64,000 bases of DNA from an uncultured virus (IMG/VR IMGVR_UViG_3300025132_000024) (lineage: Duplodnaviria > Heunggongvirae > Uroviricota > Caudoviricetes), in IMG/VR virus record IMGVR_UViG_3300025132_000024. One strand, given 5' to 3'. Below are positions 3,846-55,363 of this stretch, in pieces (within the stretch, counting starts at the first letter, position 1; every line of letters begins with the position of its first letter). A program made the translations under genes and the position numbers. The notes beneath the pieces were generated by a model. The model did not search any database. It had not been told where the DNA came from and saw nothing but the letters and a program-made list of their open reading frames with translations.

Positions 3846-4476
3846 AATAAAAAAAATTATTAAAAAAGAAGAACCTAAAAAGAAATCTGATAATATAGAC
3901 GATATATCATATTTAGAAAATTCTTCAGAAGCAGTTGGATATGATAATAGAGAAATACAATGGAATGTTTATAGAACAGTATTGCAATATATTCCAGAAC
4001 AAGTTAGTATATTAGATTTCGGCTGTGGTAGAGGCGATTTATATTCCATGCATAAATCTGAATACGGTGAAGTAGATTATGCGGGAGTAGATTTTAATGA
4101 ACCTTTAATTACGGCAGGTAAGAAAATTTATCCTGATATATCTGATAAACTTATACTAAGTGATTGGTCTAAATTATCTAGCAATATAATTAAAGATTGG
4201 TGTGTAAATGTAGGATCTAATAATTTAAGATATGATACGAACTTAAATATAGATAACTTTACTTATACATGTAAGACATTAGAAGTGATGTATAGGCATG
4301 CTAAAGATGGCATTGTTGCATTATTCACTTCTGGTACAAATCTCGGTAATGGATTAATAAGTCATGACGGAGGTAAATTATTTAACTGGGCTCAGAATAA
4401 GTTTGGAAATGTAATTTTAGATCATTCTATAGCTGAGGACGGATTTTGTTTAATTATTAAAAAAATACAAAAATGA
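3835..4476 (+). CDS. class I SAM-dependent methyltransferase
   Basis: SILDFGCGRGDL (motif I) and YAGVDFN (motif II). Confidence 0.85.
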   Translation: MLDKIKKIIKKEEPKKKSDNIDDISYLENSSEAVGYDNREIQWNVYRTVLQYIPEQVSILDFGCGRGDLYSMHKSEYGEVDYAGVDFNEPLITAGKKIYPDISDKLILSDWSKLSSNIIKDWCVNVGSNNLRYDTNLNIDNFTYTCKTLEVMYRHAKDGIVALFTSGTNLGNGLISHDGGKLFNWAQNKFGNVILDHSIAEDGFCLIIKKIQK

Positions 4477-5424: not shown

Positions 5425-5838
5425 ATGGGAACACTAACAACATTCGGCACATCGCCGTTCGATATTTTATTCAGAAATTTTTTCGAACAAGAAGGAGAAT
5501 TTGCTCCTTTCAATCAAATCAGAGTCAACCATCCAGTAGATATATATGAGTCAGATAAAGGACTTAATATTGATATTGCATGTGTAGGTTTAACAAAAAA
5601 AGATATCAATCTTACTATAGAGGGAGATATTTTAAAAGTTGAATATAAAAAATCAAACAAAGAAAATGAGTTAAATTATATTCAACGTAACATAGCAAAA
5701 AGGTCATTTAATTTTGGATGGAGAATTTCTAGAAAATTTGATTTATCTAATTTAGATGCCAAGTTACAAAACGGTTTACTACAACTTCATGCGCCCTATT
5801 CAGAAGATAGCAAACCTAAATCAGTTACAATAAAGTAA
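5425..5838 (+). CDS. hsp20: small heat-shock protein Hsp20/alpha-crystallin
   Basis: PVDIYE, YIQRNIAKRSF and AKLQNGLLQL motifs; SD AAGGAGG. Confidence 0.92.
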   Translation: MGTLTTFGTSPFDILFRNFFEQEGEFAPFNQIRVNHPVDIYESDKGLNIDIACVGLTKKDINLTIEGDILKVEYKKSNKENELNYIQRNIAKRSFNFGWRISRKFDLSNLDAKLQNGLLQLHAPYSEDSKPKSVTIK

Positions 5839-8886: not shown

Positions 8887-9498
8887 ATGAGTTTATATGA
8901 AGAAAAGCCTAAGGCTAAAGAAGTAGAAGAAGAAATAGAAGATAGTCCTTATACTAAATTATCTGACATAGCAACTAATTTAGTTGATTTTGATGACTCG
9001 GTTATTTATTTAAATGATGAAATAACCGAAATGAGTTTAGTGGATTTTATGATCAAAGTAAGATCTATAATTTCTAATCGCGATGATAATGAAAAAGATA
9101 ATCCTATTAATTTAATTATTAACTCGCCTGGTGGAGATATATATGACATGTTAGGTATGATAGATTATATTGAATCTTTATCAGTAAAAATTAATACAAT
9201 ATGTAGAGGTAAAGCATTTTCGGCCGCGGCGATAATATTAGCTCATGGTACCGGACAAAGAATGATGAGTAAAAGATCATCAGTTATGTTTCATCAATCA
9301 TCTAGTTTTATTAGTGGCAAGATGAGCGATATATCAGCATATGTCGATAATATAAGAACATTAGAAACGACCATATATAATTTGTTGGAAGGCAAAACTA
9401 AAAAAGATGCCACGTGGTGGAGAGAAATGATGAAAACAGATTTTTTCTTAACATCAGAACAATTAGTAGAATATGGAGTAGTAGATCAAATAATATAA
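8887..9498 (+). CDS. clpP: ClpP-family serine protease
   Basis: INLIINSPGG, GKAFSAAA (catalytic Ser), VMFHQ (His), D-FFL...EYGVVDQI. Confidence 0.9.
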   Translation: MSLYEEKPKAKEVEEEIEDSPYTKLSDIATNLVDFDDSVIYLNDEITEMSLVDFMIKVRSIISNRDDNEKDNPINLIINSPGGDIYDMLGMIDYIESLSVKINTICRGKAFSAAAIILAHGTGQRMMSKRSSVMFHQSSSFISGKMSDISAYVDNIRTLETTIYNLLEGKTKKDATWWREMMKTDFFLTSEQLVEYGVVDQII

Positions 9499-13437: not shown

Positions 13438-13477
13438 CTGAATTAGTATATAATCATATTTATTTAAAAGGAAAATC

Positions 13478-13927
13478 ATGAAATCGGAATCATTCGTAAA
13501 ATTATTACGTAAAGTTATACGAGAAGAAGTTACAAGAGCAGTTCGAACAGAAATGAAAGAATTGTTACAAGAAAAAAAAGTAGATCATAAAAAAGTTATT
13601 AGTCATGGAATGAACTTAAATAATGTAGTATCTAAACAGCCTAGGAAACAAAAACAATATGTTAAAGATCCTATGTTAAATGATATTTTAAATAGTACCG
13701 GCCCATTGCAAGAAAATAGAGCAATGAGTTTTGATAGTGGCATGGCACAATCATTTAAATCAATGATGTCAACAGATCCTGGAGTTCCGCATGTTGCGCC
13801 AGTAACTGATATACAAGGGAAAGCAGTTAATATGTCTAATGAAGGTGTTAAGACGGCTGTAAATGCAATGACAAAAGATTATTCTGCTTTAATGAAAGCA
13901 ATAGATAAGAAAAAAGGAAAACGATAA
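13478..13927 (+). CDS. hypothetical protein
   Basis: LRKVIREEV...LLQE leader; late box at 13456-13463 and SD AAAGGA. Confidence 0.8.
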   Translation: MKSESFVKLLRKVIREEVTRAVRTEMKELLQEKKVDHKKVISHGMNLNNVVSKQPRKQKQYVKDPMLNDILNSTGPLQENRAMSFDSGMAQSFKSMMSTDPGVPHVAPVTDIQGKAVNMSNEGVKTAVNAMTKDYSALMKAIDKKKGKR

Positions 13928-28304: not shown

Positions 28305-28395
28305 AGTAATTATAAATTTTTATTGATATAATTTATTATTGAAATAAAACATTGACATGTTAAATGTTAATGCTAATATTAATATTATATAATAT

Positions 28396-32480: not shown

Positions 32481-35400
32481 GTGCCTATACGCAAAAAAGC
32501 TGAACTACTTAATTTACAAAATTTAGAGTATATAAAAATCGATGATTCGCTACTAAGTAGTGAATTATTTGATATTATAGACTTTCCGGAAAAATTAACC
32601 GCGGGTAAAAATCTTTTTAAGATACGAATGCAAAACGGCCGATTTGTCGATGGTAGCGAAGTTTATATTGATGTAGTTGATTTTAATGGCAATGCAATAT
32701 ATTATGAACCATTAAAATATGTAGAAAAGGATGGGACACGTGTTATATCTATTTATGTATATCCAGATACCCCACCCGGTCCGGCACGAGTATTTATTGC
32801 AGGAAGATTAGCAATTGATGATGATGGGCAAGTTATTGAATTTTCTACTGATCCCAATGCATCTAATTTTAGAAATATACCAAATGCTTTATGGTCACGA
32901 TCTGTGCCAGTGGCACCCTCAGCATTTAATACATCAGAAATAATATTTACAAAACAGCCATCATTAACTATAACAGAAATTGTACAGCCATTTAGACAGC
33001 CCGTAACTATAGACTCTATTTTTACAAATCAAACAAGACCTAATAGTTCAGTAGAAGTGATTGCTGCTACTACTACACAAAATAATAATACGGCAGTGAG
33101 TGATGGTACTAGAACAGTCACCGGCGGTTCTTTAAGTGGCAATAGTCCTTCACGAAATCAAGGAACTGCTATCGTCAATAATAGTGGTACTAATAATACT
33201 GTAGCTGCAACAGCCGGCAAACAAACAACTTCAGCTACTGTACAAGTTGTAAGTGGATTCTCCGTTTTAAAAACTACTAATTTCCCTTTATCAGCTTCAA
33301 TGCAAGGAGGACAACTTACTATTGTTAATCCTTTAATATCTGTACCCCAAAATACAGTATTAAATGCAGCCGGACAAGTTCTTCCAAATTCACAAGCAGA
33401 TGACTTTGCAAAAGTTATCGCAGCTGGGAGTAATTTTACGCCAGCAGCAGGAAATCGTCCTTTAAGTGGATCGTATGTATTTCATATCGATACTGTACTA
33501 AATAAATCAACAGCCAGAATATCACAAATATCCGGATTTGCAAATCAATCTGATAATACATTCGGAGCTTTTTCAGTTAAAGTTACTAAAAAAGATATAT
33601 TTGGATTTTTATTACTACAAGAAACAGTTTCAAAAATTGAGGCGGCAACAAACGTAACTGCTAGTTTCGTTAAGCCAGCAGAGACAATATTAACAGAAAA
33701 TTCGGCAAGTTTTGCAGATATAATAATAGCAGATACAGAGCCCGAAACAGGGGATGTATATAGAATAAAAACTTTATTTAAACCTAGTGGCCAATTCGGA
33801 GATTTTTTAGATTTAGGAGATACGATATTAGAACAACAAAATATTTTAATAGATGAAACATCGTTAGAGACAAATGTAGTTGTAGGTTCATTTTACGAAA
33901 ATTTCGGCCAGTTCGAATCATTACAAGAAATACAAAAATATTGGTCATCGAGTGTAGCAGGTGGAATATCTACAAATGCGCTAGCACCAGAATATAACGT
34001 AGATGATTTGATAGGAGGAGTTTCATTAGTCACCGATTGGAATAATAATACTAATCAATTTACTTCAGTTAAGGGTGATGCAGCAATATTCCAGATTAAA
34101 GATCAATATAAGCCTAAAATTTATCCTAATACAACATATGTAGTAAGATTTAAAGCAACAGTACCATCCGCGGTAAGTAATTATATAAGTAATGATTCTA
34201 ATATTCCAGATCCTAGATTAGATTTATATATTAATAATGATATTGTTCCAGATAATCCAGTAACAGAAATATTAATAGGCGACATGAACGTGCCAGCGAC
34301 ATTCCAAAAAAGTTTACAAGATCCACCTTTTAACAACGGCAGTGATTTTGGTACACGCGTTGGATCTGTATTTGCTAGTAGAAATGCAGTTGGTAACATT
34401 GCAACAGTTGAATTACGATTCAAAGCACAATCAGAAGAAAATTTAGATATAAGATTTGTATTAAGAACAGGATTATTTATTATCTCGGATATTGAAGTAT
34501 TGGCTGATCGTGAAACGGGTTATACACCTAACTATGTACGAATTGCAAAACGTGTTCCGATGGAGCATATGCATACGCCATTAAGTTTTAAATTTCAATA
34601 TTTTGATATTAGAGGTAATAAAGCAGATTTAGAAACAGTTGCATTTGGAGCTGTATTTGACGGAGATAATAGTTATATTCAAGGCACAAGTAATCTATTA
34701 ACAGGATCTTTATTTATAGGAAATCAGGTTGCTTCTGGTATAGAGATGGGAGGATTGAACTCAGGATTTATTAGATCTGTTGGATACGAAGGATTAAATA
34801 AAGCAATAGATGGAACAGGCCCAGGAGGATTTTTATTATATTCTGGATCTGGCCAAATGCAAATTGGTGATAATATAGAAGAGGGCGTCGGACTACAATT
34901 AGTAGGAGATAATGATAGTAGTCATTTAATTTTTACGACTCGTAATGGAGGATCGATTGATATAAAAGCTGAGAAGTTTTTTATAGGTACTAATGATACA
35001 CAGTTTATATCAGGTTCAGAAGGCAACATAGAAATTAGTTCGTCACTATTTCATTTAGATCCTCAAAACGATTTACTTGTTATAGGGGCTGATGCAGTTA
35101 TTAATGCTGATTTAACTGTTAATAGTTTAAGAACTCCAGCCACGATAGGAGGTTCGCCATCTACTACAGAAAATGCTTCTTCATCAATAGACTCTGATGG
35201 ATTTGCTAAATTTGCTTCGGCATCCATCGCAGGCTTCGAAGTAGTTTCTGATGAAATAAGATCTGCAAATGAAGCATTGAGATTAAAAGCAAGTGGTGAT
35301 ATAACTGCATCTAGAGTATTATTAGAAGGCGGTACTATTACTTCTGGCGTAACTATATTAGGATCGTTATCTGCAAATAGTATTTTAACTCCTGCTACTA

Positions 35401-38400
35401 TTAACGGAAGTCCGGCAACGCCACAAAACGCATCATCATCTATTTCAGATAACGGATTAGCTATATTTAGATCTGCTTCAATAGCAGGATTTGTAGTTAA
35501 TACAGAAGAAATAAAATCATCAAATGAAAGTTTAAGATTAAAAGCCGAAGGACAAATAACAGGATCAAATGTTTCATTTAGTGGTGGTAAAATTGCAAAT
35601 TGGAATATAATAGGCAATACACTTTCAAGTGTCAATACTTCTAATAAAGGTATAATATTGAATGCAGATCCATCATCTCCAACTATTGAGGTTAGAGAGG
35701 ATGATAACAATCGTATACGAATATTCCATACTACTAGTAATAATTTTGGTATAATAGGAACACAAGGAGGTAATAATGTGTTCTTATTAGGAGATCCTGG
35801 CGGCAATGGAAATAAAATTTCATCATGGGCATTTAATGATAAAAGATTATCATCTTTTAAAACTTCCACTCAAGATAAATTTGGTATTAGTATTGATGCT
35901 GATTATCAATTATTAACATTTCATGGAGATGCAGGACAGGGCAAGAATAATATAGGTGATAATGATAGAGATAATGTAATGCTTGCGATTGGACAACTTA
36001 CTGATGATATATTTGGTATCAAAGGTTTTAATACCGCAGGAACTAGAATATTTGAATTATCACCAACACGAAATGAAATTGCAGGCTGGACCTTTGATAA
36101 TCAAAAATTATCCAGCGGTAATATAATTATAGATTCTGCAGGTAGTATTCAAACTGCCGATTATGCATCTGATTTAAAAGGATGGAAGATATCAGCAGAA
36201 CATAATGGATTCTTAGAAGTCGAAAATGCTAAAATAAGAGGAACATTAGCTACCGCGGTATTTGAAAAAGAAACTGTCAATGCAGTCGGTGGACAATTAT
36301 ATGTCGCGAATTCAACAACTTTAACTGCGTCAGCTGATACGCCATCCGGTAATTATCTTCCTACTGACGCAACCATGTCTGTAGTAAATGTATCTGGATT
36401 CAGCGCTGACGAAATATTATCTTTGAAAAAAGTATCAGCAACAGGATTTAGTACAGAGTATGTTAAAGTTGTATCATCATCTAGACAAGACCCATCAAGT
36501 GATACAGATCTTTCAGGACAGTTATTTTTAATTAGAGGATATGGAGCAACATTTACAGCTGGCCCATCCGCATCATTAGGAGATACTCCGGCCGGGGCAC
36601 AGTCTTATAGCGGATCTCAGGTTATAGTTTCAACAGGAAAAATAGGTACTGGATTCATAAGATTAAATGCTAATCCAAATAATTTAGCAACGCCATATAT
36701 GGATATTGTTGAAAGAACAGGAAGTGGAGTTTATGATGTAGACTTAAAAGTGCGATTAGGAGACCTTAAAGGATTAGCAAATTCGTCATATGTATTTGGG
36801 AATTCAAATCCGGGATTTGGATTAGCAACTGATAATGTATTTCTACAAGGAGGCATTATAGCAAATACAGGTTCAATAGGCGGCGTAAAAATGGAATCTA
36901 GCAAATTATTTATTGGTGCCGGTAACCATGCTAATTCAGATACTGGATTTTTTGTGGATTCTGGATCTAATTTTTCATTAGGAGATAGATTAGTTTGGGA
37001 TGGCTCATCATTAACAGTTAGAGGCCAATTAAGATTAGAATCCGGAACAAGTGTCGACCAAGCAATAAATGAGGCAACAGCGTCTAATACAGCAAAGTCA
37101 TTAATATTAACTGCAGATTCTCAAGTAATGACATTTGCATCGGCATCTGCAACAAATGCTATTCCTAATAAAATAATATTTAGTATTGCTCAACAAAATT
37201 TAACTGGTAGTATTTCTGCTAGTAATGTTACTATAACAACAAATCAAAGTACTTCGGTAACTAATTTTACATTTGATACCGGTAGTATAACAACTAACTC
37301 CGCAGGATTGTTTAGTGGAATAGTTTCTGGTAGTTTAACTTTTACCGGTAATTTAAATGCCGGCGGGTTGGCATCTGATAAAGATAATTTTCCTGTAACT
37401 ATTAATGTCTCCGGCGATGGATTTACAGACCAAACTACTATATTCAAATTAGAAGGCGGAAGTTCAGGTTCTGATGGAACCGACGGCTCGCCAGGAACCG
37501 ATGGCCAAGATGGACAGCCATCCATTAATGGATTTTTAACTAATGAATCTCATACATTTGTAGCAAATCAAAATGGTACTGTTACAAGTTTTGCAGAAGG
37601 TAGTTCATCTATGTTTGTATTTGTAGGATTAACAAATTCAACAGGAAGCTTTTCATATTCAAGAACTAATAGTACTGGAGTATCATCAGCATTAGGCGGG
37701 CCTGCGGGTAATGTTTTAGCTATTTCAGCAATGGCACATGATTCAGGCTCGATCAATATTACAGCAACAAGCGCAAGTATTAGTATAACAAAAACAATGA
37801 CACTTGCTAAATCTAGACAGGGAGCGAGTGGTAGTGATGGATCTGATGGAGCACCAGGTAGTCCAGGCGCAACCGGCCCTATAGGACCTAATTTTGATTT
37901 CTTATCTGGATCATTATCAACTATCGATACGACAGGAGGATTACAGCCTGGATTGATTATGACATCGACTGTATTTGGATTCCACGGAGCAATTGCTCAA
38001 GGCGATGGTACAAATGCGACATTGGGCGATTTTACATCGTATTTAGATCATAGTGGTAGCTTTTATTTAGGTGGAGGTGAAAGTGGTGCATCAACACCTG
38101 ATGGCGGATATTTTGCTTGGAATAATGATGAAAAATCTTTATTAATAAGTGGATCTAAAGCAGAAGTCAAAGTAGATAAGTTTTTTGTAGGAAATGATCA
38201 AAGTGCATTTTTAAGTGGTTCAAATGGAAATATAGAGATATCATCTTCCAAATTTCATATAACAAGAGCTGGAGATGCTATAGTTAGAAAGATTAATGCA
38301 ACAGAAGGATCAGTCGGAGGATTTGATATAGCTTCATCTAGAATAGAAGGCAATGATGTAAGTAATTTTACCGTTACAGTAACAGCTGACGGCAGTCAAG

Positions 38401-40505
38401 GAGAAGGCGATAATGCATTCATCGTAAGTAATTTTAGTTCCACGCCTTCATATCCAGGAGGTGCTGCAGCATTATTAAATTCTGGAGGATTACAATTAGT
38501 AAATAGCTCAACCAACTTTTTCTTTGATAATAATGACAATCCGGTCAGCGCCGCGCCTATAAGAGATTATAATGCTGGTACCAGTGCGATAAGAATAGAT
38601 TCTGGATTTACTGTCAGCGGCGATGGAGATGGAGTTTCATTTACAGTGAATGTAACAAATGACACTAGCGTTACCCCATTTGTTGTTCCGGGAGCAAATT
38701 CAACTAATTTCCTTGCTGATGCAACTGCTAAATCATTACTCATACCATCGGCATCATACGGAGAAACAGGAATTCAGTTAGAATATAATTCCGGAACACC
38801 AAGAGCATTTATTGGTAAATCAGATGGATCTTTTTTTAAATTTGATGGAACAAATACATCTATAAGTTCATCCGATTTCTTCTTAGGTTCGCCAGACAAT
38901 TTCATATCCGCATCGAATGGTAATTTAGAAATATCATCTAGTAATTTTATAATAGATCCTGGTGGCTCAGTAACTGCAAAAGATATAACATTAACAGATT
39001 TTACTAGAGCAGATTATTTTGTATATACATTAGCAGTAATAGATTCTGGCAATAAAGCACAATTTTTTGAAAACTATACATATCTATCACAAAATTATAC
39101 CAGATTAGTTTTAGACGGATCTTTAGGGGGAGCCTCGGCACAATCTGTTCGTATTACTGTTGCGCCTGATTATCCTATAGGAATGATACAACCTCCACCG
39201 CCTGGCACTTTATTTCAAAATGAAGGCCATATGGTAGTTATTGAATGTGCATTTTCAAACGGATTATTTTTTGCATCGCAAGCATCTACCGGAGGTAACA
39301 GTGGATTAAGATATGGATTCAGTGCTGATTCAGATGATTGGTTCAATCAAATGTTCCAGGTAAGAAGTATAGGAGGAGTTCAATACGGAACAGGAACAGT
39401 AGGTGACGTAGGAAATGGAGTTGGTAGAACATATGTAATGAATATCGGTCAAAGAATGGTATTTCATAGATCATCATTTGATTTTAGACCTGCAGGAATT
39501 TCAAGTTATGATATTACAGCTAACGGCAATATAAATGCACAAGGATTAATTAATTTTTATTCAGGTCTTCGTACTAGTAACGGTCCTATAGGAATTGGAA
39601 TTACTGGTACTAGTAAAATTTCAGCAGGATATGCTTTTGAAGTAGATCATATAACAGATAGGAACGGTAGTAGTACGGCAGCTTCCAGATTCCATGGTAA
39701 TATACAAGCGGATGCTAATTTAGATGTAGATGGAACAACTACATTAGGAAATGCCAATAGTGATAATACAACTATAACTGGAAGATTGTTAGCTGGGACA
39801 CTTTTACCGACTTCAGGCCATTCTATAAAAAGTAATGTAGCTAGTGGATATGTTGTTACAATGCTTAATGATGGAAACAATTCGAATCGATTCGGATTAA
39901 GATTACAGGCCGGATTAGATAATCAAACTTATCCAAATCATGGCGTAACAAATTATTACATGAGATTAGATGAAGGCGACGGCGGAGTTATAGCATATGT
40001 TACAGCATTAAATAAAAATGTAACATGGGGTACATTCACCGGAGTTCATGACGGCCATGTATTAACACAAGATAATATTAATTCTACAATTAACGAAAAT
40101 ACTAGTTCAGCATACGACACGGGTACAATTGTAGTAACAGTCAAATCAGAATTATCCGGAAGTTATCAGCCTGATCATTACATAGTCTCGTCATCTACAT
40201 ATCAGGATAAAAGAGTCATAGGAGTATATTATAGTGTTTTAGATCGGGATGCATTGGGCGATGGATATGAATCTATACATAACTTTGCTTCCTTAGGGGA
40301 CGGTCCTATATTAGTTTGTTCTCAAAATGGAAATATTGAAAATGGAGATTATATAACGACGGCGTCAGGGTCTGGCGGATATGGGTGTAAACAAAACGAC
40401 GACTTGCTACACAATTATACAGTTGCTAAAGCTTTAGAAGATGTAGATTGGAGCACAGAACCCGATAATACAAAATTAATATCATGTACATATCATTGCG
40501 GATAA
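32481..40505 (+). CDS. giant tail fibre/virion protein (2674 aa) with collagen-like segments and C-terminal chaperone-like domain
   Basis: GTG start after late box (32459) and AAAGGA SD; Gly/Ser/Thr-rich, internal repeats, G-X-Y runs, FTGVH...GDGPILVC..NGNIENGDYIT C-terminus. Confidence 0.75.
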   Translation: MPIRKKAELLNLQNLEYIKIDDSLLSSELFDIIDFPEKLTAGKNLFKIRMQNGRFVDGSEVYIDVVDFNGNAIYYEPLKYVEKDGTRVISIYVYPDTPPGPARVFIAGRLAIDDDGQVIEFSTDPNASNFRNIPNALWSRSVPVAPSAFNTSEIIFTKQPSLTITEIVQPFRQPVTIDSIFTNQTRPNSSVEVIAATTTQNNNTAVSDGTRTVTGGSLSGNSPSRNQGTAIVNNSGTNNTVAATAGKQTTSATVQVVSGFSVLKTTNFPLSASMQGGQLTIVNPLISVPQNTVLNAAGQVLPNSQADDFAKVIAAGSNFTPAAGNRPLSGSYVFHIDTVLNKSTARISQISGFANQSDNTFGAFSVKVTKKDIFGFLLLQETVSKIEAATNVTASFVKPAETILTENSASFADIIIADTEPETGDVYRIKTLFKPSGQFGDFLDLGDTILEQQNILIDETSLETNVVVGSFYENFGQFESLQEIQKYWSSSVAGGISTNALAPEYNVDDLIGGVSLVTDWNNNTNQFTSVKGDAAIFQIKDQYKPKIYPNTTYVVRFKATVPSAVSNYISNDSNIPDPRLDLYINNDIVPDNPVTEILIGDMNVPATFQKSLQDPPFNNGSDFGTRVGSVFASRNAVGNIATVELRFKAQSEENLDIRFVLRTGLFIISDIEVLADRETGYTPNYVRIAKRVPMEHMHTPLSFKFQYFDIRGNKADLETVAFGAVFDGDNSYIQGTSNLLTGSLFIGNQVASGIEMGGLNSGFIRSVGYEGLNKAIDGTGPGGFLLYSGSGQMQIGDNIEEGVGLQLVGDNDSSHLIFTTRNGGSIDIKAEKFFIGTNDTQFISGSEGNIEISSSLFHLDPQNDLLVIGADAVINADLTVNSLRTPATIGGSPSTTENASSSIDSDGFAKFASASIAGFEVVSDEIRSANEALRLKASGDITASRVLLEGGTITSGVTILGSLSANSILTPATINGSPATPQNASSSISDNGLAIFRSASIAGFVVNTEEIKSSNESLRLKAEGQITGSNVSFSGGKIANWNIIGNTLSSVNTSNKGIILNADPSSPTIEVREDDNNRIRIFHTTSNNFGIIGTQGGNNVFLLGDPGGNGNKISSWAFNDKRLSSFKTSTQDKFGISIDADYQLLTFHGDAGQGKNNIGDNDRDNVMLAIGQLTDDIFGIKGFNTAGTRIFELSPTRNEIAGWTFDNQKLSSGNIIIDSAGSIQTADYASDLKGWKISAEHNGFLEVENAKIRGTLATAVFEKETVNAVGGQLYVANSTTLTASADTPSGNYLPTDATMSVVNVSGFSADEILSLKKVSATGFSTEYVKVVSSSRQDPSSDTDLSGQLFLIRGYGATFTAGPSASLGDTPAGAQSYSGSQVIVSTGKIGTGFIRLNANPNNLATPYMDIVERTGSGVYDVDLKVRLGDLKGLANSSYVFGNSNPGFGLATDNVFLQGGIIANTGSIGGVKMESSKLFIGAGNHANSDTGFFVDSGSNFSLGDRLVWDGSSLTVRGQLRLESGTSVDQAINEATASNTAKSLILTADSQVMTFASASATNAIPNKIIFSIAQQNLTGSISASNVTITTNQSTSVTNFTFDTGSITTNSAGLFSGIVSGSLTFTGNLNAGGLASDKDNFPVTINVSGDGFTDQTTIFKLEGGSSGSDGTDGSPGTDGQDGQPSINGFLTNESHTFVANQNGTVTSFAEGSSSMFVFVGLTNSTGSFSYSRTNSTGVSSALGGPAGNVLAISAMAHDSGSINITATSASISITKTMTLAKSRQGASGSDGSDGAPGSPGATGPIGPNFDFLSGSLSTIDTTGGLQPGLIMTSTVFGFHGAIAQGDGTNATLGDFTSYLDHSGSFYLGGGESGASTPDGGYFAWNNDEKSLLISGSKAEVKVDKFFVGNDQSAFLSGSNGNIEISSSKFHITRAGDAIVRKINATEGSVGGFDIASSRIEGNDVSNFTVTVTADGSQGEGDNAFIVSNFSSTPSYPGGAAALLNSGGLQLVNSSTNFFFDNNDNPVSAAPIRDYNAGTSAIRIDSGFTVSGDGDGVSFTVNVTNDTSVTPFVVPGANSTNFLADATAKSLLIPSASYGETGIQLEYNSGTPRAFIGKSDGSFFKFDGTNTSISSSDFFLGSPDNFISASNGNLEISSSNFIIDPGGSVTAKDITLTDFTRADYFVYTLAVIDSGNKAQFFENYTYLSQNYTRLVLDGSLGGASAQSVRITVAPDYPIGMIQPPPPGTLFQNEGHMVVIECAFSNGLFFASQASTGGNSGLRYGFSADSDDWFNQMFQVRSIGGVQYGTGTVGDVGNGVGRTYVMNIGQRMVFHRSSFDFRPAGISSYDITANGNINAQGLINFYSGLRTSNGPIGIGITGTSKISAGYAFEVDHITDRNGSSTAASRFHGNIQADANLDVDGTTTLGNANSDNTTITGRLLAGTLLPTSGHSIKSNVASGYVVTMLNDGNNSNRFGLRLQAGLDNQTYPNHGVTNYYMRLDEGDGGVIAYVTALNKNVTWGTFTGVHDGHVLTQDNINSTINENTSSAYDTGTIVVTVKSELSGSYQPDHYIVSSSTYQDKRVIGVYYSVLDRDALGDGYESIHNFASLGDGPILVCSQNGNIENGDYITTASGSGGYGCKQNDDLLHNYTVAKALEDVDWSTEPDNTKLISCTYHCG
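35112..35575 (+). repeat. two 85-aa-period repeats in the giant fibre
   Basis: LTVNSLRTPATIGGSP...LRLKASGDITAS at 35112 and LSANSILTPATINGSP...LRLKAEGQITGS at 35367. Confidence 0.85.
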
Positions 40506-44573: not shown

Positions 44574-44904
44574 TTCAATAATTTGTGTTAGCAAATGGTT
44601 AATGCATAGAGTTATACAGGATCTAGAGTCGGGCGATTTAGCAAAAGAACAATTAATTTTAGAACGTGATATCCAAGACAAACTTAGAGAAAAATTGACA
44701 ATTAAAGATACTATTATCGAATCTTATCGCAGAAAAGAAAAAAATACAGAATCAGAAATGATAGTTATGGCCGAAGTATTAAGACTAAAAGACGAAAAAA
44801 TTCAAGTTGCTAAAAATGAAACTAAACATTATAAAAAACAAAGAAACTTATTTAGTTTAGGCTCCGGAGGAATTATCGCCTTAATTATTTTGATCTTAAT
44901 TTAA
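44494..44904 (+). CDS. exported coiled-coil protein with C-terminal TM (spanin-partner-like)
   Basis: Signal peptide ending ...TSIS|Q, coiled coil, C-terminal GGIIALIILILI; overlaps the previous gene by 80 nt. Confidence 0.6.
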   Translation: MLKKFNILIITLLVTLTSISQTDTKSDSIICVSKWLMHRVIQDLESGDLAKEQLILERDIQDKLREKLTIKDTIIESYRRKEKNTESEMIVMAEVLRLKDEKIQVAKNETKHYKKQRNLFSLGSGGIIALIILILI

Positions 44905-44923
44905 TTTTTTATATATTTAACTA

Positions 44924-46495
44924 ATGGCACAAAAGTCCCTTAAAGAAATAGTAAAAGAAGAATATAAAAAATGTGCAGTTGATCCTGTACATTTTATGAA
45001 AAAATACTGTATTATACAACATCCTACTAAAGGCAAGATGTATTTTAATCTTTATGATTTTCAACAACAAACTTTACATGAACTTAAAGATAATAGATAT
45101 AACATAATATTAAAATCTAGACAATTAGGAATATCTACTCTTACTGCAGGATATTCACTTTGGTGTATGTTATTTAGATCAGATTACAACGTTTTAGTTA
45201 TAGCAACAAAACAAGATGTAGCAAAAAATCTTGTAACTAAAGTAAGAGTGATGCATGATAATTTACCTAGTTGGTTAAGAGGCAAGACCTTAGAGGATAA
45301 TAAACTATCATTAAGATTCAAGAATGGATCACAAATAAAAGCAATTTCATCAAAAGGAGATGCCGGTCGTTCAGAGGCATTATCCTTATTAGTAATGGAT
45401 GAGGCAGCATTTATAGATAAGATTGATGATATATGGACAGCTGCCCAGCAAACACTGGCAACAGGTGGGGGAGCTATTATGTTATCAACTCCTAATGGTA
45501 CCGGTAACTTATTTCATAAGACTTGGTGTGATGCCGAAGCCGGCGGAAGATTCAATCCAATTAAATTGCATTGGACAGTACATCCCGAACGAGATGAAAA
45601 CTGGAGAGTTGAACAAACACAATTGTTAGGAGAGAAGGCAGCAGCACAAGAATGTGATTGTGATTTTATTTCATCTGGACATACAGTAGTCGACGGACCC
45701 ATCATTCAATGGTATGATCAAACATATGTCGAAGATCCAAAAGAAAAAAGAGGATTCGATGGTAATTATTGGATGTGGGATTATCCAAATTATACTAAAG
45801 CATATGCAGTAGTAGCTGATGTTGCTAGAGGAGATGGAGCAGATTATTCTGCATTTCATGTTTTAGAAATAGAATCAATGACACAAGTTGCTGAGTACAG
45901 AGGTAAGATAGGAACTACAGAATATGGTAATATGCTAATTTCAGTTGCAACAGAATGGAACAATGCTCTACTGGTAATTGAAAATGCAAATATAGGATGG
46001 GCGGTATTGCAAGTTGCTATTGATCGAAATTATGAAAATTTATATTATTCGTATAAACAAGATGCATATGTAGATGAAAATGTGCACTTAGCAAAAGGAT
46101 ATGATTTAAAAAATAAATCACAAAAAGTCCCTGGATTTTCAACAACTAGTAGAACAAGACCTTTAATAATATCTAAAATAGAAACATATTTTAGAGAAAA
46201 ATCTCCAATTGTAAAGTCTAAACGATTAATAGATGAATTGTATGTCTTTATATGGAACGGTAGCAGGGCAGAGGCTCAACGAGGTTATAATGATGATTTA
46301 GTAATGTCTTTTGGAATTGCATTATGGGTACGAGATACTGCATTAAGATTACATCAACAAGGCATAGATTTATCTAGAAGAGCTCTGGGCCATTTAGGCA
46401 AATCAGACGGCGTTTATTCTGCAACAACTAATCAGAATGCTTCATGGGATTGGAAAGCAGGTAAAGATAACGAAGGGCTAAATTGGCTATTATGA
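44924..46495 (+). CDS. terL: terminase large subunit (T4 gp17-like)
   Basis: LYDFQ, KSRQLGIST Walker A, LLVMDEAAF Walker B, STPNG, QECDCDF, DVARGDGADYS, IEN, NDDLVM. Confidence 0.95.
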   Translation: MAQKSLKEIVKEEYKKCAVDPVHFMKKYCIIQHPTKGKMYFNLYDFQQQTLHELKDNRYNIILKSRQLGISTLTAGYSLWCMLFRSDYNVLVIATKQDVAKNLVTKVRVMHDNLPSWLRGKTLEDNKLSLRFKNGSQIKAISSKGDAGRSEALSLLVMDEAAFIDKIDDIWTAAQQTLATGGGAIMLSTPNGTGNLFHKTWCDAEAGGRFNPIKLHWTVHPERDENWRVEQTQLLGEKAAAQECDCDFISSGHTVVDGPIIQWYDQTYVEDPKEKRGFDGNYWMWDYPNYTKAYAVVADVARGDGADYSAFHVLEIESMTQVAEYRGKIGTTEYGNMLISVATEWNNALLVIENANIGWAVLQVAIDRNYENLYYSYKQDAYVDENVHLAKGYDLKNKSQKVPGFSTTSRTRPLIISKIETYFREKSPIVKSKRLIDELYVFIWNGSRAEAQRGYNDDLVMSFGIALWVRDTALRLHQQGIDLSRRALGHLGKSDGVYSATTNQNASWDWKAGKDNEGLNWLL

Positions 46496-50243: not shown

Positions 50244-50398
50244 TTCCAAATAGAACTTGGCAACAATTTTCAAAAGCTCCTGAAAATGCTAATTTATCAT
50301 TAGATGAGCAAAAAAGAAAATATTCAGACGAAAGAAAAAGATTTGAACAACAAAACCAATTTGTAAACTCTGGTTTATTTATGCAAGGATTAAAATGA
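50240..50398 (+). CDS. hypothetical protein (52 aa)
   Basis: Manual translation MIPNRTWQQFSKAPEN...MQGLK*; ATGA overlaps at both ends. Confidence 0.65.
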   Translation: MIPNRTWQQFSKAPENANLSLDEQKRKYSDERKRFEQQNQFVNSGLFMQGLK

Positions 50399-51000
50399 AT
50401 AAGCAATTATTAGTAGATTATACAGTATTTGAAATATCACCTCAACAGATTAATGAATCATTATCTGAAAATAATGGCAAGTTAATTGTAAAGGGAGTAT
50501 TGCAAAGAGCTGAAGCTAAAAATCAAAACGAGAGAATATATCCAAAAGAAGTACTTGTAAGAGAAGCAAAAAAATATGCTAATACATTTATAAAGGAAAG
50601 AAGAGCATTAGGAGAATTAGATCATCCGGATTCATCTGTAGTAAATTTAAATAATGTATCGCATAATGTTTTAGAAATGGAGTTTAAAGGAAATGATCTC
50701 GTAGGTACAGTTGAAGTATTATCTACCCCATCTGGAAATATTTTAAAAGAATTATTTAAATCTGGTATAAGATTAGGCATATCTAGTAGAGGTATGGGAT
50801 CTGTAAAGGAAGTTATGAGAGAGGCAGGAAATACATTAGAAGTTCAGCCAGATTTTGAATTGATAGCATTTGACTTTGTTTCTAATCCGTCAACACATGG
50901 AGCTTTTTTATCTCCAGTTAATGAATCAGTTAACAAAGTAGTACAAAAAAAATATTCTAAAGTAGAAAATTTAATAACAACTATTATAAGGGAGTTTTAA
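50395..51000 (+). CDS. prohead core protease (T4 gp21-like)
   Basis: KNQNERIYP, ALGELDHP, VSH, LSTPSG, LGISSRGMGSV, FDFVSNPSTHGA. Confidence 0.93.
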   Translation: MNKQLLVDYTVFEISPQQINESLSENNGKLIVKGVLQRAEAKNQNERIYPKEVLVREAKKYANTFIKERRALGELDHPDSSVVNLNNVSHNVLEMEFKGNDLVGTVEVLSTPSGNILKELFKSGIRLGISSRGMGSVKEVMREAGNTLEVQPDFELIAFDFVSNPSTHGAFLSPVNESVNKVVQKKYSKVENLITTIIREF

Positions 51001-51001
51001 A

Positions 51002-51295
51002 ATGGCATTAGTAGATATGAAATCAGAATATGGACCTACCAATACAATTAACGAAAAAGGTACCGGGACAATATTGGGACATAATACAGTACCAATGGCA
51101 AATGCACAATTAGGAAATCCTACTATTGGAGGAAAGAAGAATTTGACTACATTCAATGATTTGCAATCTGCATCTCATAATAGTAAGTTTGGGCCATTTA
51201 ATAGTTCAAACAAAAAAGGTACAGGATTAAAAGTTGATTTATTAGGTAATGATCCAGAAAATCCGGAAATAGACTTTACAAATTATAGGCCGTAA
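51002..51295 (+). CDS. hypothetical protein with internal duplication
   Basis: KSEYGPTNTINEKGTG and NSKFGPFNSSNKKGTG; GGAG SD. Confidence 0.7.
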   Translation: MALVDMKSEYGPTNTINEKGTGTILGHNTVPMANAQLGNPTIGGKKNLTTFNDLQSASHNSKFGPFNSSNKKGTGLKVDLLGNDPENPEIDFTNYRP

Positions 51296-51296
51296 G

Positions 51297-51617
51297 ATGA
51301 TTAGATTAGTAGGCATAGCAAAAGGATTGAATCGTAAGATAAACGAAGAACCCGATCAAATGCAAGGTAATAGAGGCGTAGCATACGGAGATACATTACC
51401 AGATACAGAATTAGCTCAAGAATATGCGGCAGATTTATCTAAAGTAATAGAACAGCTAGAAGCATTGGAAGAGGAAATGGCTCGAGAATTTGATAATAGA
51501 GCAATGTCAACACAAGATGTATCATATAATCAACAATCTAATCAAATGAGTAGATATATAAGTCAAGCATCTAAAAATATTGAAAGTCTAATTAATATGT
51601 TAGAAAGGTATAGTTAA
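51297..51617 (+). CDS. hypothetical protein
   Basis: ORF track; MIRL...KINE leader. Confidence 0.7.
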   Translation: MIRLVGIAKGLNRKINEEPDQMQGNRGVAYGDTLPDTELAQEYAADLSKVIEQLEALEEEMAREFDNRAMSTQDVSYNQQSNQMSRYISQASKNIESLINMLERYS

Positions 51618-51618
51618 A

Positions 51619-52125
51619 ATGAAAAGTTGGGAAAAAAAGTTAATGAATCATATCCTAAATGAAAAGTATTTAGGAGAAGAAGAAAATACAAAAATGCAAA
51701 AAGAAGATAAGAGATCTTTTTTAAAGGCAGTTGCTAATTTTCACCAAATAGGCGAAATGATTTCTACTAACGGACAATTGAAAGAAATTACAGAAACTTT
51801 AAATAATATTGTTCAACAAGCGCAATCATTAACTGTACAAGAATCAGAACATTGGTTTGATAATGTAACGGTATCTAGACACATGAAACAAATGAATGAA
51901 GCGTATAAGGTATTTGAGAAAACAGCAAATGAAATGAATTCATTACAACAAAGATTAGAATCTGCATATGACGATATGGGTATGGTATTAAATAGATATT
52001 ATAATGTTAATAATGCTTTATCTGAAACTGATATTAATGAAGACCAATATTCTGCAGGAGTATCAGACAAAGGACCCGCTTTTGATGATCATATGACAGC
52101 AGATAAATCAAAAAGATTATCCTAA
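51619..52125 (+). CDS. hypothetical coiled-coil head-module protein
   Basis: ORF track; ILNE and INE sites. Confidence 0.75.
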   Translation: MKSWEKKLMNHILNEKYLGEEENTKMQKEDKRSFLKAVANFHQIGEMISTNGQLKEITETLNNIVQQAQSLTVQESEHWFDNVTVSRHMKQMNEAYKVFEKTANEMNSLQQRLESAYDDMGMVLNRYYNVNNALSETDINEDQYSAGVSDKGPAFDDHMTADKSKRLS

Positions 52126-52128
52126 AAA

Positions 52129-52160
52129 TTTGTTTTTCTGAAAAAAAGTCTTTATATTTA
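52129..52160 (+). promoter_or_regulatory. Bacteroidetes-type promoter for bS21
   Basis: TTTG (52129)-N20-TATATTTA (52153). Confidence 0.65.
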
Positions 52161-52173
52161 ATAAAACAAAGTT

Positions 52174-52428
52174 ATGATACGACACAATAAAACTACAAAA
52201 CTTATAATACCAGCTCACTATTTAGGAGCCAAGGTTATGAAAACAAAAAGAAATCCATATGGTGATATTACTTCCGCAATACAACATTGGAAAAGAAATC
52301 TAAAAGACTCTAATACATTACAAGTTCTTAAAGATAAAAAAGAATTTGAAAAGCCATCGTCAATCAGACGAAGACAACTAATAAGAGCAAAATATATTAA
52401 TAAATTACAAGAAAGAGATAGATATTAA
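52174..52428 (+). CDS. rpsU: ribosomal protein bS21 homologue
   Basis: DITSAIQHWKRNLKDSNTLQVLKDKKEFEKPSSIRRRQ fits the bS21 pattern I..AL..FKR......L......FEKPS..RR; located in the head module. Confidence 0.75.
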   Translation: MIRHNKTTKLIIPAHYLGAKVMKTKRNPYGDITSAIQHWKRNLKDSNTLQVLKDKKEFEKPSSIRRRQLIRAKYINKLQERDRY

Positions 52429-52449: not shown

Positions 52450-52536
52450 ATATTTATTTGTAATAAAGATACCACATCTCAATATGTGGTCACTCAAAAA
52501 TTATATTAATTCTTATTAAGATTACAAATAATCTTA
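52450..52536 (+). promoter_or_regulatory. late box plus two-hairpin leader of the scaffold/capsid operon
   Basis: ATATTTAT at 52450; ACCACAT-CTCAAT-ATGTGGT at 52471-52490; TAAGATTA-CAAA-TAATCTTA at 52517-52536. Confidence 0.6.
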
Positions 52537-52564
52537 TTTCCAATTTAAATACGAGGAAAAATCG

Positions 52565-53617
52565 ATGAACGATTTATTGAAAGAAGCTATTGCAGACGCA
52601 AAAGCCGTAAGGGAAACTGCATTAGCAAACGCAAAAGTTGCGTTAGAAGAAGCTTTCACTCCAAGACTACAATCAATGCTATCTGCTAAATTATCAGAAG
52701 AAGATGAAATGATCGATGACGACATTGAAGATCTTCCAGAAGATAATCATAATCCAGATGCTCCAGATTCAACATCAGCTGCCGGCGATGATCTAATGGC
52801 TGAGCCAAAAGACATGCCAATGGAAGGCGAAATGGATGATAAAGAGCAAATGCCAGAAATGGATGATATGGAAGATAAAGAGCAGATGCCAGAAATGGAT
52901 GATAAAGAGCCAAAAGTGGACGAAGGTGAGTATGAGAAGCAAGAAGAGGACTTAGAACTCGAAGCAATAATTAGAGAACTAGAAGAAGATTTAGGTGAAG
53001 AAGTAGATTCTTCAGAAATCGGAGCTAGTGATAATAAATTAGATGCTGATGCTGCTCAATCTCATACTGAAGATCCAGGAGAAGGCGATTTAACTGAAAC
53101 TGAAGATAAAGAAAAAGAAACAAACGAAGACGAGAAAAAAGATAACGTCGACGAAGATATTTCTTTAGATGAAATCATCAGTGCATTGAGAGAAGACGAA
53201 GAGAAGAAAGACGTGAAAGAAGATGAAGAGAAAAAAGACGACATAAAAGAAGAAGAAGATAAAGAAAAAGATCTTAAAGAAGCTTATAATGTCATTAAAT
53301 TCTTAAAATCTAAAATCAACGAAGTTAATCTTCTAAATGCAAAACTATTATTTTCGAACAAATTGTTTAGAAACTATCCATTAAGTGAAAATCAAAAAAT
53401 GAAAGTGATTGAGAATTTCGATAGAGCTTCTAATTTAAGAGAAGTAAAATTGATTTATAGCACACTTTGTGAATCATTTACTGGATCTAAAACAAAACGT
53501 TCAATCAAAGAAAGCTATGCTTCTAAGCCTAGTAAGTCAACTGCACCTAAGAAAGAAATTCTTTCTGAAGGAAATGCATTAGCTGCTAGATGGAAGAAAT
53601 TAGCTAATTTAAAATAA
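52565..53617 (+). CDS. prohead scaffolding/core protein
   Basis: LLKEAIADAKAVRETALANAK start, very acidic centre, EVNLLNAKLLF and RWKKLANL end; directly upstream of the capsid gene. Confidence 0.8.
   Translation: MNDLLKEAIADAKAVRETALANAKVALEEAFTPRLQSMLSAKLSEEDEMIDDDIEDLPEDNHNPDAPDSTSAAGDDLMAEPKDMPMEGEMDDKEQMPEMDDMEDKEQMPEMDDKEPKVDEGEYEKQEEDLELEAIIRELEEDLGEEVDSSEIGASDNKLDADAAQSHTEDPGEGDLTETEDKEKETNEDEKKDNVDEDISLDEIISALREDEEKKDVKEDEEKKDDIKEEEDKEKDLKEAYNVIKFLKSKINEVNLLNAKLLFSNKLFRNYPLSENQKMKVIENFDRASNLREVKLIYSTLCESFTGSKTKRSIKESYASKPSKSTAPKKEILSEGNALAARWKKLANLK
52829..52911 (+). repeat. tandem EMDD(KEQMP) coding repeat
   Basis: GAAATGGATGAT at 52829, 52856 and 52892. Confidence 0.85.
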
Positions 53618-53632
53618 ATTCGAGGAAAAACA

Positions 53633-55363
53633 ATGAATATTGATTCTTTATTACCTCATGATCATCAAACTACTCAACAAGAAGTTGCCATTGGTTTAGA
53701 AAACAAATGGGAAAAAACAGGCTTGTTAGAGGGTATTGATTCTGAGGTCGAGAGAAGAGGCATGGCTGTTCTTTTAGAAAACCAAGCTAAGCAGTTAGTA
53801 ACTGAAGCTAATTCTACTGGAACTGATTCCAATGCTGAACAATGGTCTGGAGTTGCTCTTCCATTAGTAAGAAGAATTTTTGCTGAGATTGCTGCAAAAG
53901 ATTTCGTTTCTGTACAACCAATGAACTTACCATCAGGTCTAGTATTTTACTTAGACTTTAAGTATGGTACGCAACAAGGTGTTAATAGAGGTAACGGAAC
54001 TGCAGGAGGTAATGATTTCTTAACTGGACAAGGAAGAACATCACAGAAAGATTCTGTATTTGGTCAAACAGATGCAGGTGGATTAGGAACAGGAACTGCT
54101 GCAGGATCAGCTCCAGCTGAAGGTCTTTATGGACCAGGAAGATTTGGTTATTCTATTAATGATGTAACTTCTTCTTTCTCTGCTTTATCATCTGCGGGTG
54201 CTAAAACAGGTTCTGTTGCTGCTGGAACAGGTATATTTGCAAATAAAGGTGCTTTAAGCCAAGTTGATTTTGATAAGTTTACTAACTATAATAGTGAATT
54301 TTCTGCTTCATTTATAGGCAAAAAAGCTCAAGTATTATCTGTACCAGTAACATCATTAAGTGGATATGATCCAAATGGTTTAAGAGCATTTAACGTAATA
54401 GGAACGGGTATAACTACAGTATATCCAGAATTTACTGCAATTGATCTACAAAACAAAGACCATATACATTTCTTAATTGAAACTAACACTACTCCAGCTG
54501 TAGGTGCTTTAGATGTAATTTATCAAAAGCAACCAACAGATACTGCTAGAGGTGATTTTGAAGATCCAGCTGCATTAGCTAATAATGCTGCTTCAAGTAC
54601 GCAACTTGATATTCCAGAAATCAACTTAGAAATGAGAAGTGAAGCAATTGTTGCTAAGACAAGAAAATTAAAAGCTATCTGGTCTCCAGAATTTGCTCAA
54701 GATTTAAATGCTTATCATTCAATTGATGCAGAAGCTGAATTAACTTCTATGTTATCTGAATATATTTCGCAAGAAATTGACTTAGAAATTTTAGATATGT
54801 TAGTACAGAATGCTCAAACTGTTGATAGATGGTCTGCAAAAATTGGATTTGAATTTGATTCAGCTACTAATAGCTTTGTCCAATCAAATGCAACTGCTCA
54901 AGCATACAACCAAGGAACATGGTTCCAAACTTTAGGAACTAAAATTCAAAAAGTAAGCAACAAAATTCACCAATTAACTTTAAGAGGTGGAGCTAACTTC
55001 TTGGTATGTTCTCCAACTGTAGCAACTATCTTAGAATCTATTCCAGGATATGCTGCTGATACGGATGGCGATAAAATGCAATTTGCTATGGGAGTACAAA
55101 AAGTAGGTGCTATTAATAATAGATTCCAAGTATATAAGAATCCTTATATGACTGAGAATACTATATTAATGGGATATAGAGGATCACAGTTCCTAGAAAC
55201 AGGTGCTGTTTATGCTCCATATGTACCACTAATAATGACTCCATTAGTATACGATCCAGATAACTTCACTCCAAGAAAAGGTGTGATGACTAGATATGCT
55301 AAGAAAATGGTAAGACCAGAATTCTACGGTAAAGTCTATGTATCTGCATTAGATACTATATAA
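53633..55363 (+). CDS. major capsid protein (T4 gp23-like)
   Basis: LLENQ, LPLVRR, VSVQPMNLPSGLVFYL, AKTRKLKA.WSPEFAQDL.AYH.IDAEAEL, YAPYVPL, FTPRKGVMTRYA. Confidence 0.96.
   Translation: MNIDSLLPHDHQTTQQEVAIGLENKWEKTGLLEGIDSEVERRGMAVLLENQAKQLVTEANSTGTDSNAEQWSGVALPLVRRIFAEIAAKDFVSVQPMNLPSGLVFYLDFKYGTQQGVNRGNGTAGGNDFLTGQGRTSQKDSVFGQTDAGGLGTGTAAGSAPAEGLYGPGRFGYSINDVTSSFSALSSAGAKTGSVAAGTGIFANKGALSQVDFDKFTNYNSEFSASFIGKKAQVLSVPVTSLSGYDPNGLRAFNVIGTGITTVYPEFTAIDLQNKDHIHFLIETNTTPAVGALDVIYQKQPTDTARGDFEDPAALANNAASSTQLDIPEINLEMRSEAIVAKTRKLKAIWSPEFAQDLNAYHSIDAEAELTSMLSEYISQEIDLEILDMLVQNAQTVDRWSAKIGFEFDSATNSFVQSNATAQAYNQGTWFQTLGTKIQKVSNKIHQLTLRGGANFLVCSPTVATILESIPGYAADTDGDKMQFAMGVQKVGAINNRFQVYKNPYMTENTILMGYRGSQFLETGAVYAPYVPLIMTPLVYDPDNFTPRKGVMTRYAKKMVRPEFYGKVYVSALDTI

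Follow-up and report, generated by a model that had tools for sequence, protein, structure and literature searches.

The question raised here is what a phage might do with its own ribosomal protein bS21 in a host phylum that ignores Shine-Dalgarno (SD) sequences. The analyzed stretch of DNA (IMG/VR virus record IMGVR_UViG_3300025132_000024; 64 kb, 31% G+C, about 69 genes, all on the + strand) is referred to as the window. It is a fragment of an uncultured T4-like myovirus, and the host of the phage is probably a member of the Bacteroidota. Within its head module, an open reading frame (ORF) at positions 52174 to 52428 encodes bS21, and its start codon has no SD although the genes around it are SD-led. 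Wild-type ribosomes of Flavobacterium johnsoniae are described as SD-blind: their 16S rRNA 3′ tail is held in a platform pocket, against which only the 13-bp SD of rpsU can compete (PMC13000457; PMC7797042). One mismatch in this SD abolishes its use (PMC13000457), and the tail becomes free when bS21 is missing or the pocket is weakened (PMC13000457; PMC7797042). bS21 is the commonest phage-encoded ribosomal protein (PMC9976891). For its role the sequence analyzed here gives a concrete, falsifiable prediction: in a phylum that ignores SDs, the phage group keeping them on its most abundant late genes is the group that carries bS21. A preliminary description of the window had proposed that the phage bS21 retunes host ribosomes towards late genes. 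Overall this idea is partly supported; the retuning itself we infer.

The features of the bS21 gene are as follows:
52174..52428, + strand: bS21 gene, 84 codons plus stop (Pfam PF01165, alignment to solved chains)
52174..52236, + strand: basic N-terminal extension, residues 1-21, consensus MxKxxKxxxSIxPGxxxGVKV (alignments A1 and A2)
52393..52398, + strand: codons of Tyr74-Ile75, the equivalents of Tyr54-Ile55 (alignment to 7jil_z)
52129..52160, + strand: host-type (Bacteroidota sigma-A-like) promoter block with TTTG at 52129-52132, a spacer of 20 nucleotides (nt) and TATATTTA at 52153-52160 (regex scan)
52161..52173, + strand: short A-rich leader without SD, predicted transcription start at about 52165 (−7 box placed at −12 to −5)

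The 84-residue product scored 29.5 bits against the Pfam family Ribosomal_S21 (PF01165; cut-off 27), and residues 22-84 alone reached 30.4 bits against the same cut-off. Residues 31-80 are colinear with residues 11-60 of the solved bS21 chains 9i5v_9 (E 2.5e-4) and, from F. johnsoniae, 7jil_z (E 4.9e-4). These two were the best sequence matches among solved chains, and 15 of the 16 chains listed were bS21. Among the database relatives, P0001 has a precomputed PF01165 match and P0002 is named ribosomal protein S21 by one source. The ORF is a bS21 homologue inside the head module, as the preliminary description had assumed, and its incorporation into the 30S subunit is predicted. An AlphaFold2 model built on 48 sequences (mean predicted local distance difference test score 83) has helices at residues 32-46, 48-56 and 61-83, with a short helix and a small hairpin in front of them. 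Foldseek placed the bS21 chains 9ojm_Q, 6rw4_Q and 9fib_U at the head of its list, with E 0.35-2.4, and no match reached E ≤0.001. A tblastn search of the phage collection with the 63-residue core gave no match at E 1e-3, and this search was too insensitive, as Mel-JY01 carries an S21 gene.

Tyr54 and Ile55 are the two residues of F. johnsoniae bS21 that touch the sequestered 16S 3′ tail; Tyr54 stacks on A1534 and is a signature of the Bacteroidia/Bacteroidetes (PMC7797042). The alignment places Y74 and I75 of the window protein on these residues of 7jil_z, so that the C-terminal Tyr, which had looked retained in the preliminary description, is indeed kept. In the corresponding column of 97 distinct extended proteins Tyr was found 68 times and Phe 13 times (aromatic in 81 of 97); position 75 is variable.

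Relative to 7jil_z, the window protein has 21 extra N-terminal residues (MIRHNKTTKLIIPAHYLGAKV). The extension is kept in frame in four database relatives (61-96% identity) and in all related loci, with 48 relatives aligned. Among the 97 distinct extended proteins Pro13 is found in 82, Gly14 in 91 and Val21 in 92. This conservation upholds both the N-terminus longer by about 20 residues and the start at 52174 that had been reported. The internal ATG at 52237, which would give a product of canonical length (63 residues), was rejected as the true start, since residue 22 is Ile or Val in the relatives and the 21 residues upstream are conserved. Only the window and one further locus (L001) depart from Ile or Val at this residue, and only these two have AGGAG followed by the in-frame ATG of codon 22 (52225-52239 in the window). 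This internal AGGAG-ATG might yield a second, canonical-length product in the window phage.

For the SD analysis, positions −18 to −4 of each start were scored by their duplex energy with the anti-SD in the 16S 3′ tail, which we take to be ACCUCCUUU. The nucleotide identities of the tail given in PMC7797042 agree with this sequence. A promoter of Bacteroidota sigma-A would have a −33 TTTG and a −7 TAnnTTTG about 19-21 nt apart, with transcription starting 5 nt past the box; the consensus TAnnTTTG is reported for positions −12 to −5 (PMC9723704).

In front of bS21 the −33 TTTG is present and TATATTTA matches 7 of the 8 positions of the Bacteroidota sigma-A −7 box. The predicted leader is only about 9 nt long and the anti-SD duplex energy of the start is +2.1 kcal/mol. 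The regex scan and this energy bear out that bS21, although placed in the head module, has a promoter-like block of its own and an SD-less start. Under a looser rule, 43 of the 45 distinct upstream regions of relatives have a host-type block no more than 45 nt ahead of bS21. Their bS21 leader is 15-30 nt long, A-rich, ends in AAGTTAT-ATG and has no SD; none of the bS21 starts in 53 loci reaches −3.5 kcal/mol (mean +0.4). In some relatives (L033, L042, L063, L081) an intrinsic terminator, consisting of a stem-loop and a T run, follows the bS21 stop codon, which suggests that the gene is closed off there as a unit of its own. The window has a T run without a stem at this place. RNA-library contigs from four runs miss bS21 and 51255-52400 and are uninformative on its expression.

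The same type of block was found before 2987, 6098, 44924 and 11324, where it overlaps a late box. The terminase gene is an example:
44889..44926, + strand: large terminase start, TTTG-N19-TATATTTA, nearly leaderless, without SD (regex scan, duplex energy)
In the relatives, the terminase start has a host-type block in four of six cases and an SD in one of six.

Throughout the window, the presence of an SD was found to follow the promoter class. An energy of −5 kcal/mol or lower was reached by 21 of 69 starts compared to 7.5% of 1477 non-start ATGs, and G is enriched before the starts only at −12 to −7. Each gene was assigned to its nearest upstream promoter motif, and −3.5 or lower was taken as SD-like. 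Counting all genes of a unit, 31 of 51 late-box genes and 1 of 14 host-type genes have an SD (Fisher 5e-4, Mann-Whitney 7e-5), with 8887 and 28396 counted as host-type after the promoter calls of the preliminary description. Under the strict motif rule the numbers are 31 of 57 and 1 of 8, respectively (Mann-Whitney 0.002, Fisher 0.054), and for promoter-proximal genes 16 of 22 and 0 of 6 (Mann-Whitney 7e-4). The proposed split by promoter class is thus recovered from the energies of all starts. The six host-type starts named before (2987, 6098, 8887, 28396, 44924, 52174) range from +0.5 to +3.7, and the 15 late starts said to carry an SD from −4.2 to −12.5. Of these host-type calls, 8887 and 28396 do not fit the rule TTTG-N-TAnnTTT. 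The primase gene at 28396 is preceded by TTGACA-N16-TAATAT (28330-28395), a classic sigma-70-like pair which is not of the Bacteroidota type. Operon-internal genes of host-type units are also without SD. The sole strong SD in a host-type unit (AGGAGG, −12.5) belongs to a gene at 3835-4476, which shares 11 nt with the preceding gene and for which no family match was obtained.

The late box itself, ATATTTAT, is not over-represented overall (32 matches, 28.7 expected), but the matches are skewed in strand and position: the + strand holds 25 of them, and a start codon often follows at a distance of 5-31 nt. A typical late unit start is found in the baseplate module:
13456..13480, + strand: ATATTTAT, then TTAAAAGGAAAATC, then ATG
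13928, + strand: gp25-like baseplate gene of the T4-type baseplate module

Late-box genes, abundant head proteins included, mostly carry SDs of 4-7 nt (AAAGGA, GAGGA, GGAG) with normal spacing. In 12 of 13 late-box genes a GG was found 4-9 nt before the start codon, and its distance from the box varies between 7 and 21 nt. Because the spacing is fixed to the start codon and variable from the box, these sites are SDs by their geometry. The late-box genes 4758, 40585 and 55862 have no SD, and the portal gene at 46521 has a weak one only.

To describe the conservation of this arrangement, the genes of the head module have to be named:
44924, + strand: large terminase
46521, + strand: gp20-type portal
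50395..51000, + strand: prohead core protease, the head-module marker upstream of bS21 (Pfam Peptidase_S77, phrog_207)
52565..53617, + strand: acidic protein, putative scaffold by position and composition, SD GAGGAAA (energy −5.9)
53633..55363, + strand: major capsid protein of the gp23 type, SD GAGGAAA (Pfam Gp23)
No family match to the scaffold-like protein was found in the PHROG and Pfam scans.

With the capsid protein of the window, 80 loci with 69-100% identity were retrieved from IMG/VR. Their gene order is protease, small genes, bS21, acidic scaffold-like gene and capsid gene. Five loci gave no tblastn match to bS21, yet in each of them the corresponding position is taken by a diverged bS21 of the extended form. 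SDs were counted at homology-anchored starts with an energy of −5 or lower. On this basis the capsid gene has an SD in 80 of 80 loci and the scaffold gene in 20 of 21. Further SDs were found for the homologues of 51002 (17 of 17), 50240 (17 of 21) and 51619 (33 of 51) and for the prohead protease (28 of 43). None was found for the terminase (0 of 6), the portal (0 of 20), the homologue of 55862 (0 of 12) and bS21 (0 of 53). In the stretch from protease to capsid, bS21 is therefore the one SD-less gene amid SD-led neighbors, and this holds for proteins down to 30% identity.

Whether SDs go along with bS21 beyond these relatives was analyzed in a wider set of 166 loci, whose capsid proteins are all distinct and whose upstream sequence measures 2.5 kb or more. 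Besides the capsid protein of the window, those of the phage immuto and of the loci L155 and L156 were used as queries. A locus was counted as lacking bS21 if none was found within 8-10 kb of the capsid gene; immuto and RM378 were searched as whole records. Both bS21 and a capsid-gene SD were found in 106 loci, and neither of them in 53, so that the two states agree in 159 of 166 loci. Five loci have bS21 without a capsid-gene SD (L155, LR756508, L182, L186, L235), and two have the SD without bS21 (L293, L300). The link between bS21 and the SD is suggestive, not proven.

The bS21 genes of this set are of different designs. The window family has the extended protein, with Tyr54 kept and without an SD of its own; in 94 of 97 loci with the extended form, a bS21 gene without own SD is combined with an SD-led capsid gene. 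A second, unextended design (MYVEVKGDKQ...) was found in seven loci. The protein is without Tyr54 and ends in a very basic tail. Its gene starts behind a very strong SD (−9.5 to −10.8 kcal/mol), and the capsid genes are SD-led except for the called start of L235. The strong own SD in these loci (L211, L215, L216, L220, L235, L239, L242) recalls the arrangement of host rpsU. In Mel-JY01 and L154, bS21 has a short or different extension together with an own SD, and nearly all genes carry SDs (27 of 31 and 13 of 16, respectively); the hosts of these two may simply read SDs. Two simple rules were discarded on this basis. That any bS21 brings SDs is ruled out by L155 and LR756508, and that only the extended form goes with SDs is ruled out by the seven loci with unextended bS21 and SD-led capsid genes.

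Phages like Mel-JY01 and L154 (27 of 31 and 13 of 16 genes SD-led) would fit an explanation without any functional link, in which the hosts of this clade read SDs and the SD-less starts belong to leaderless or short-leader mRNAs from promoters adjacent to the start. The predicted, nearly leaderless transcripts of the terminase and of gene 6098 and the short leader of the window bS21 would also fit it, as would the outcome of a scan of bacterial genomes with the bS21 alignment A1, which found no relative. However, the longer, A-rich bS21 leaders of the relatives are still SD-less, as are the operon-internal genes of host-type units. Tyr54 as a Bacteroidetes signature (PMC7797042), the Bacteroidota type of the promoter block and the Flavobacterium host of the nearest cultured relative also speak against SD-reading hosts, and we consider this explanation improbable.

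If the host ribosomes are SD-blind, late SDs of 4-7 nt should be useless on unmodified ribosomes. Yet they are kept, and at the right distance from the start, which is most simply read as a sign that something in infected cells releases the anti-SD or stabilizes short helices between SD and anti-SD. The phage bS21 is the obvious candidate for this, because it is made by the SD-less route of the host and its place on the ribosome is the one that governs the tail. That the protein is made independently of an SD and that ribosomes carrying it then favor SD-led virion mRNAs is a reading we hold tentatively, as plausible at somewhat less than an even chance. Its steps would be the following. The SD-less bS21 mRNA would be translated by unmodified, SD-blind host ribosomes, and the phage protein would occupy the bS21 site on the 30S platform. 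Ribosomes with the phage protein would use short SDs, either through the basic extension, which would stabilize the helix between SD and anti-SD, or through a disturbed tail pocket. The SD-led virion mRNAs would then outcompete the SD-less mRNAs of the host. Host rpsU, which is best translated by bS21-free ribosomes, would be shut off as well once the bS21 site is filled. As the converted ribosomes would favor SD-led messages over the SD-less bS21 message, a feedback mirroring that of the host could arise. In its full form, with the extended bS21 turning SD-blind Bacteroidia ribosomes into SD-reading ones and thereby providing a private translation channel beside the SD-less host mode used by early genes and by bS21 itself, a temporal specificity switch and the silencing of host rpsU, the proposal is possible but doubtful.

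Several observations weigh against the retuning of ribosomes by the phage bS21. The late genes are not uniformly SD-led, and none of 20 portal starts reaches −5 kcal/mol although a late box is present in 20 of 20. In the capsid tree, calculated with FastTree, the co-occurrence reduces to about five changes in bS21, with two well-supported independent pairs, and with two such pairs no sign test can reach significance; the long branches L154, L155, L156 and L158 are placed with doubt. The exceptions also fall on both sides. SDs are almost absent from L155 and LR756508 although both carry a plain bS21, a strong capsid-gene SD is missing from L182 and L186 in spite of their extended form, and in L293 and L300 a capsid-gene SD occurs with no bS21 in the surrounding 8 kb. 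The SDs are thus explained neither by bS21 on its own nor by its extension on its own. Judged from the alignment, the retained Tyr54/Ile55 make the protein look able to hold the 3′ tail as host bS21 does. This argues against a simple release of the anti-SD and points to the basic extension or to altered binding kinetics. Finally, phage bS21 RNA has been seen together with late transcripts (Chen et al., 2022; PMC9723584).

Some of these points would be met by a phage bS21 that is a plain spare part, which keeps ribosomes complete and SD-blind when host bS21 runs short after shut-off of the host or an attack on it, or only binds with better affinity, while the late SDs have some other function or depend on another factor that is co-inherited in the phage lineage. 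The two residues at the tail are kept, the co-occurrence is mostly one of lineage, plain-bS21 phages without SDs exist (L155, LR756508), and bS21 is essential in F. johnsoniae (PMC9976891). A spare part leaves unexplained, however, why correctly spaced SDs are found on 80 of 80 capsid genes and on none in the bS21-less sister group, why bS21 is the only head gene to be consistently without an SD (53 of 53 loci), and why the extension is so strongly conserved. Taken together with its assumption on the late SDs, this explanation appears rather unlikely.

The SD-led late genes could also be read by a pool of bS21-free ribosomes, which would grow late in infection. The phage protein would bind more loosely or exchange faster than that of the host and leave the anti-SD free for longer, so that the effect would be one of occupancy and kinetics and the extension would make no new contact. 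In bS21-free ribosomes the tail is released and initiation on SD mRNA is efficient, and dissociation of bS21 limits initiation on rpsU (PMC13000457). Yet a phage that wants bS21-free ribosomes needs no bS21 gene, and we regard such a pool as an improbable cause. If the retuning by phage bS21 proves true, it would be a natural case of ribosome specialization by the exchange of a single protein and might enable SD-dependent expression in Bacteroidota. SD reporters and bS21 mutants of F. johnsoniae as well as cryo-EM of initiation complexes exist (PMC9976891; PMC13000457).

The nearest cultured relative is the Flavobacterium phage vB_FspM_immuto (NC_055915.1), whose capsid protein shares 56% identity with that of the window; DNA nearly identical to the window was not found in the phage collection. 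Like the window phage, immuto, which belongs to the sister group without bS21, is a T4-like myovirus with the same head-module gene order and a late box of the same kind, (C/A)TATTTATAA, before its structural genes. In contrast to the window, its late boxes are followed by A-rich leaders, SDs are almost absent, and there is no bS21. No PF01165 match was obtained in the whole 160-kb record, and an SD was found at 2 of 60 annotated starts in a 50-kb stretch, which is below the background of 15%.

The position of bS21 is largely consistent with the phages described by Chen et al. (2022; PMC9723584), in which only a few genes separate bS21 from the protease of the prohead and from the capsid gene (50395, 52174 and 53633 for protease, bS21 and capsid gene in the window). 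In these phages Tyr54 or another aromatic residue is likewise kept, and Bacteroidetes hosts are predicted. It was proposed there that the phage protein replaces host bS21 and favors phage transcripts late in infection. Two differences were found. In the window and in the related loci with a match, bS21 is on the strand of its neighbors, unlike in clades a-e of that study, and the gene is read there as late-expressed, whereas the window gene has a host-type block. The words "promoter", "extension" and "ribosome binding" are absent from the article, and Shine-Dalgarno appears as background only.

Basic or aromatic N-terminal extensions were described for S21 of huge phages and proposed to aid initiation on phage mRNAs (Al-Shayeb et al., 2020; PMC7162821), and the window bS21 is similar in having an N-terminal extension, here of 21 residues. 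The accessible part of that article does not treat SD use by gene class, promoters or a comparison with bS21-less phages, and its SD remark concerns S1. A full-text search of the literature, which did not extend to the supplements of Chen et al. (2022) or of Al-Shayeb et al. (2020), retrieved no publication connecting phage bS21 to SD-led late genes.

In the host, the anti-SD is free or sequestered depending on whether bS21 occupies the 30S platform, and this determines the mRNAs that initiate (PMC9976891; PMC13000457; PMC7797042). Flavobacteriales rpsU has an unusually strong SD read by bS21-free ribosomes (PMC9976891; PMC13000457), while the phage gene is without SD. The host system controls a single gene, compared to dozens of late genes with short SDs in the phage.

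The late promoters resemble another known type as well, that of phage T4. As in T4, a single A/T-rich box lies near the late starts, without a −35-like element and with short leaders. T4 late promoters have the sequence TATAAATA and are read by gp55; the late box of the window is ATATTTAT or ATATATAA. Among the 69 ORFs of the window, which is part of a genome, no gp55-like protein was recognized.

Downstream of bS21, the unit of the scaffold and capsid genes starts with the following elements:
52450..52457, + strand: late box ATATTTAT of the scaffold-capsid unit
52471..52558, + strand: conserved structured leader with hairpins at 52471-52490 and 52517-52536, and UUCC at 52538-52541 opposite the SD GGAA at 52555-58 (RNAalifold)

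RNAalifold on 12 loci gave 18 base pairs, 7 of which are kept through changes on both sides. Both hairpins, with compensatory changes, are present in the loci L003, L004, L005, L012, L019, L031, L033, L042, L053, L063 and L081. From the predicted fold, UUCC at 52538-41 may form base pairs with GGAR in the SD. In RNA libraries, contigs from four runs of four studies start at 52473-52475, which is 16-18 nt past the late box and on the 5′ arm of the first hairpin. These starts are a weak hint at the RNA 5′ end of the scaffold-capsid message.

Further genes of the window were characterized with respect to their starts. No tRNA genes were found in it. Clp proteases and Hsp20 are listed as frequent neighbors of phage bS21 (Chen et al., 2022; PMC9723584), and a phage protease that targets host bS21 is a speculation of McNutt et al. 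(2023; PMC9976891). The window has a gene for a ClpP-family protease at 8887-9498, without SD and without late box, and an Hsp20 gene at 5425-5838, which has a strong AAGGAGG and, some 90 nt upstream, a late box. A giant ORF at 32481-40505 (2674 residues) begins with GTG behind a late box and an SD, and gave no match in PHROG and Pfam. At 1849-2034 a histone H1-like Hc1 protein of 61 residues is encoded (Pfam PF07432, 62.8 bits), preceded by a late box and an AAAGGA SD, which may be a DNA-condensing protein made late in infection.

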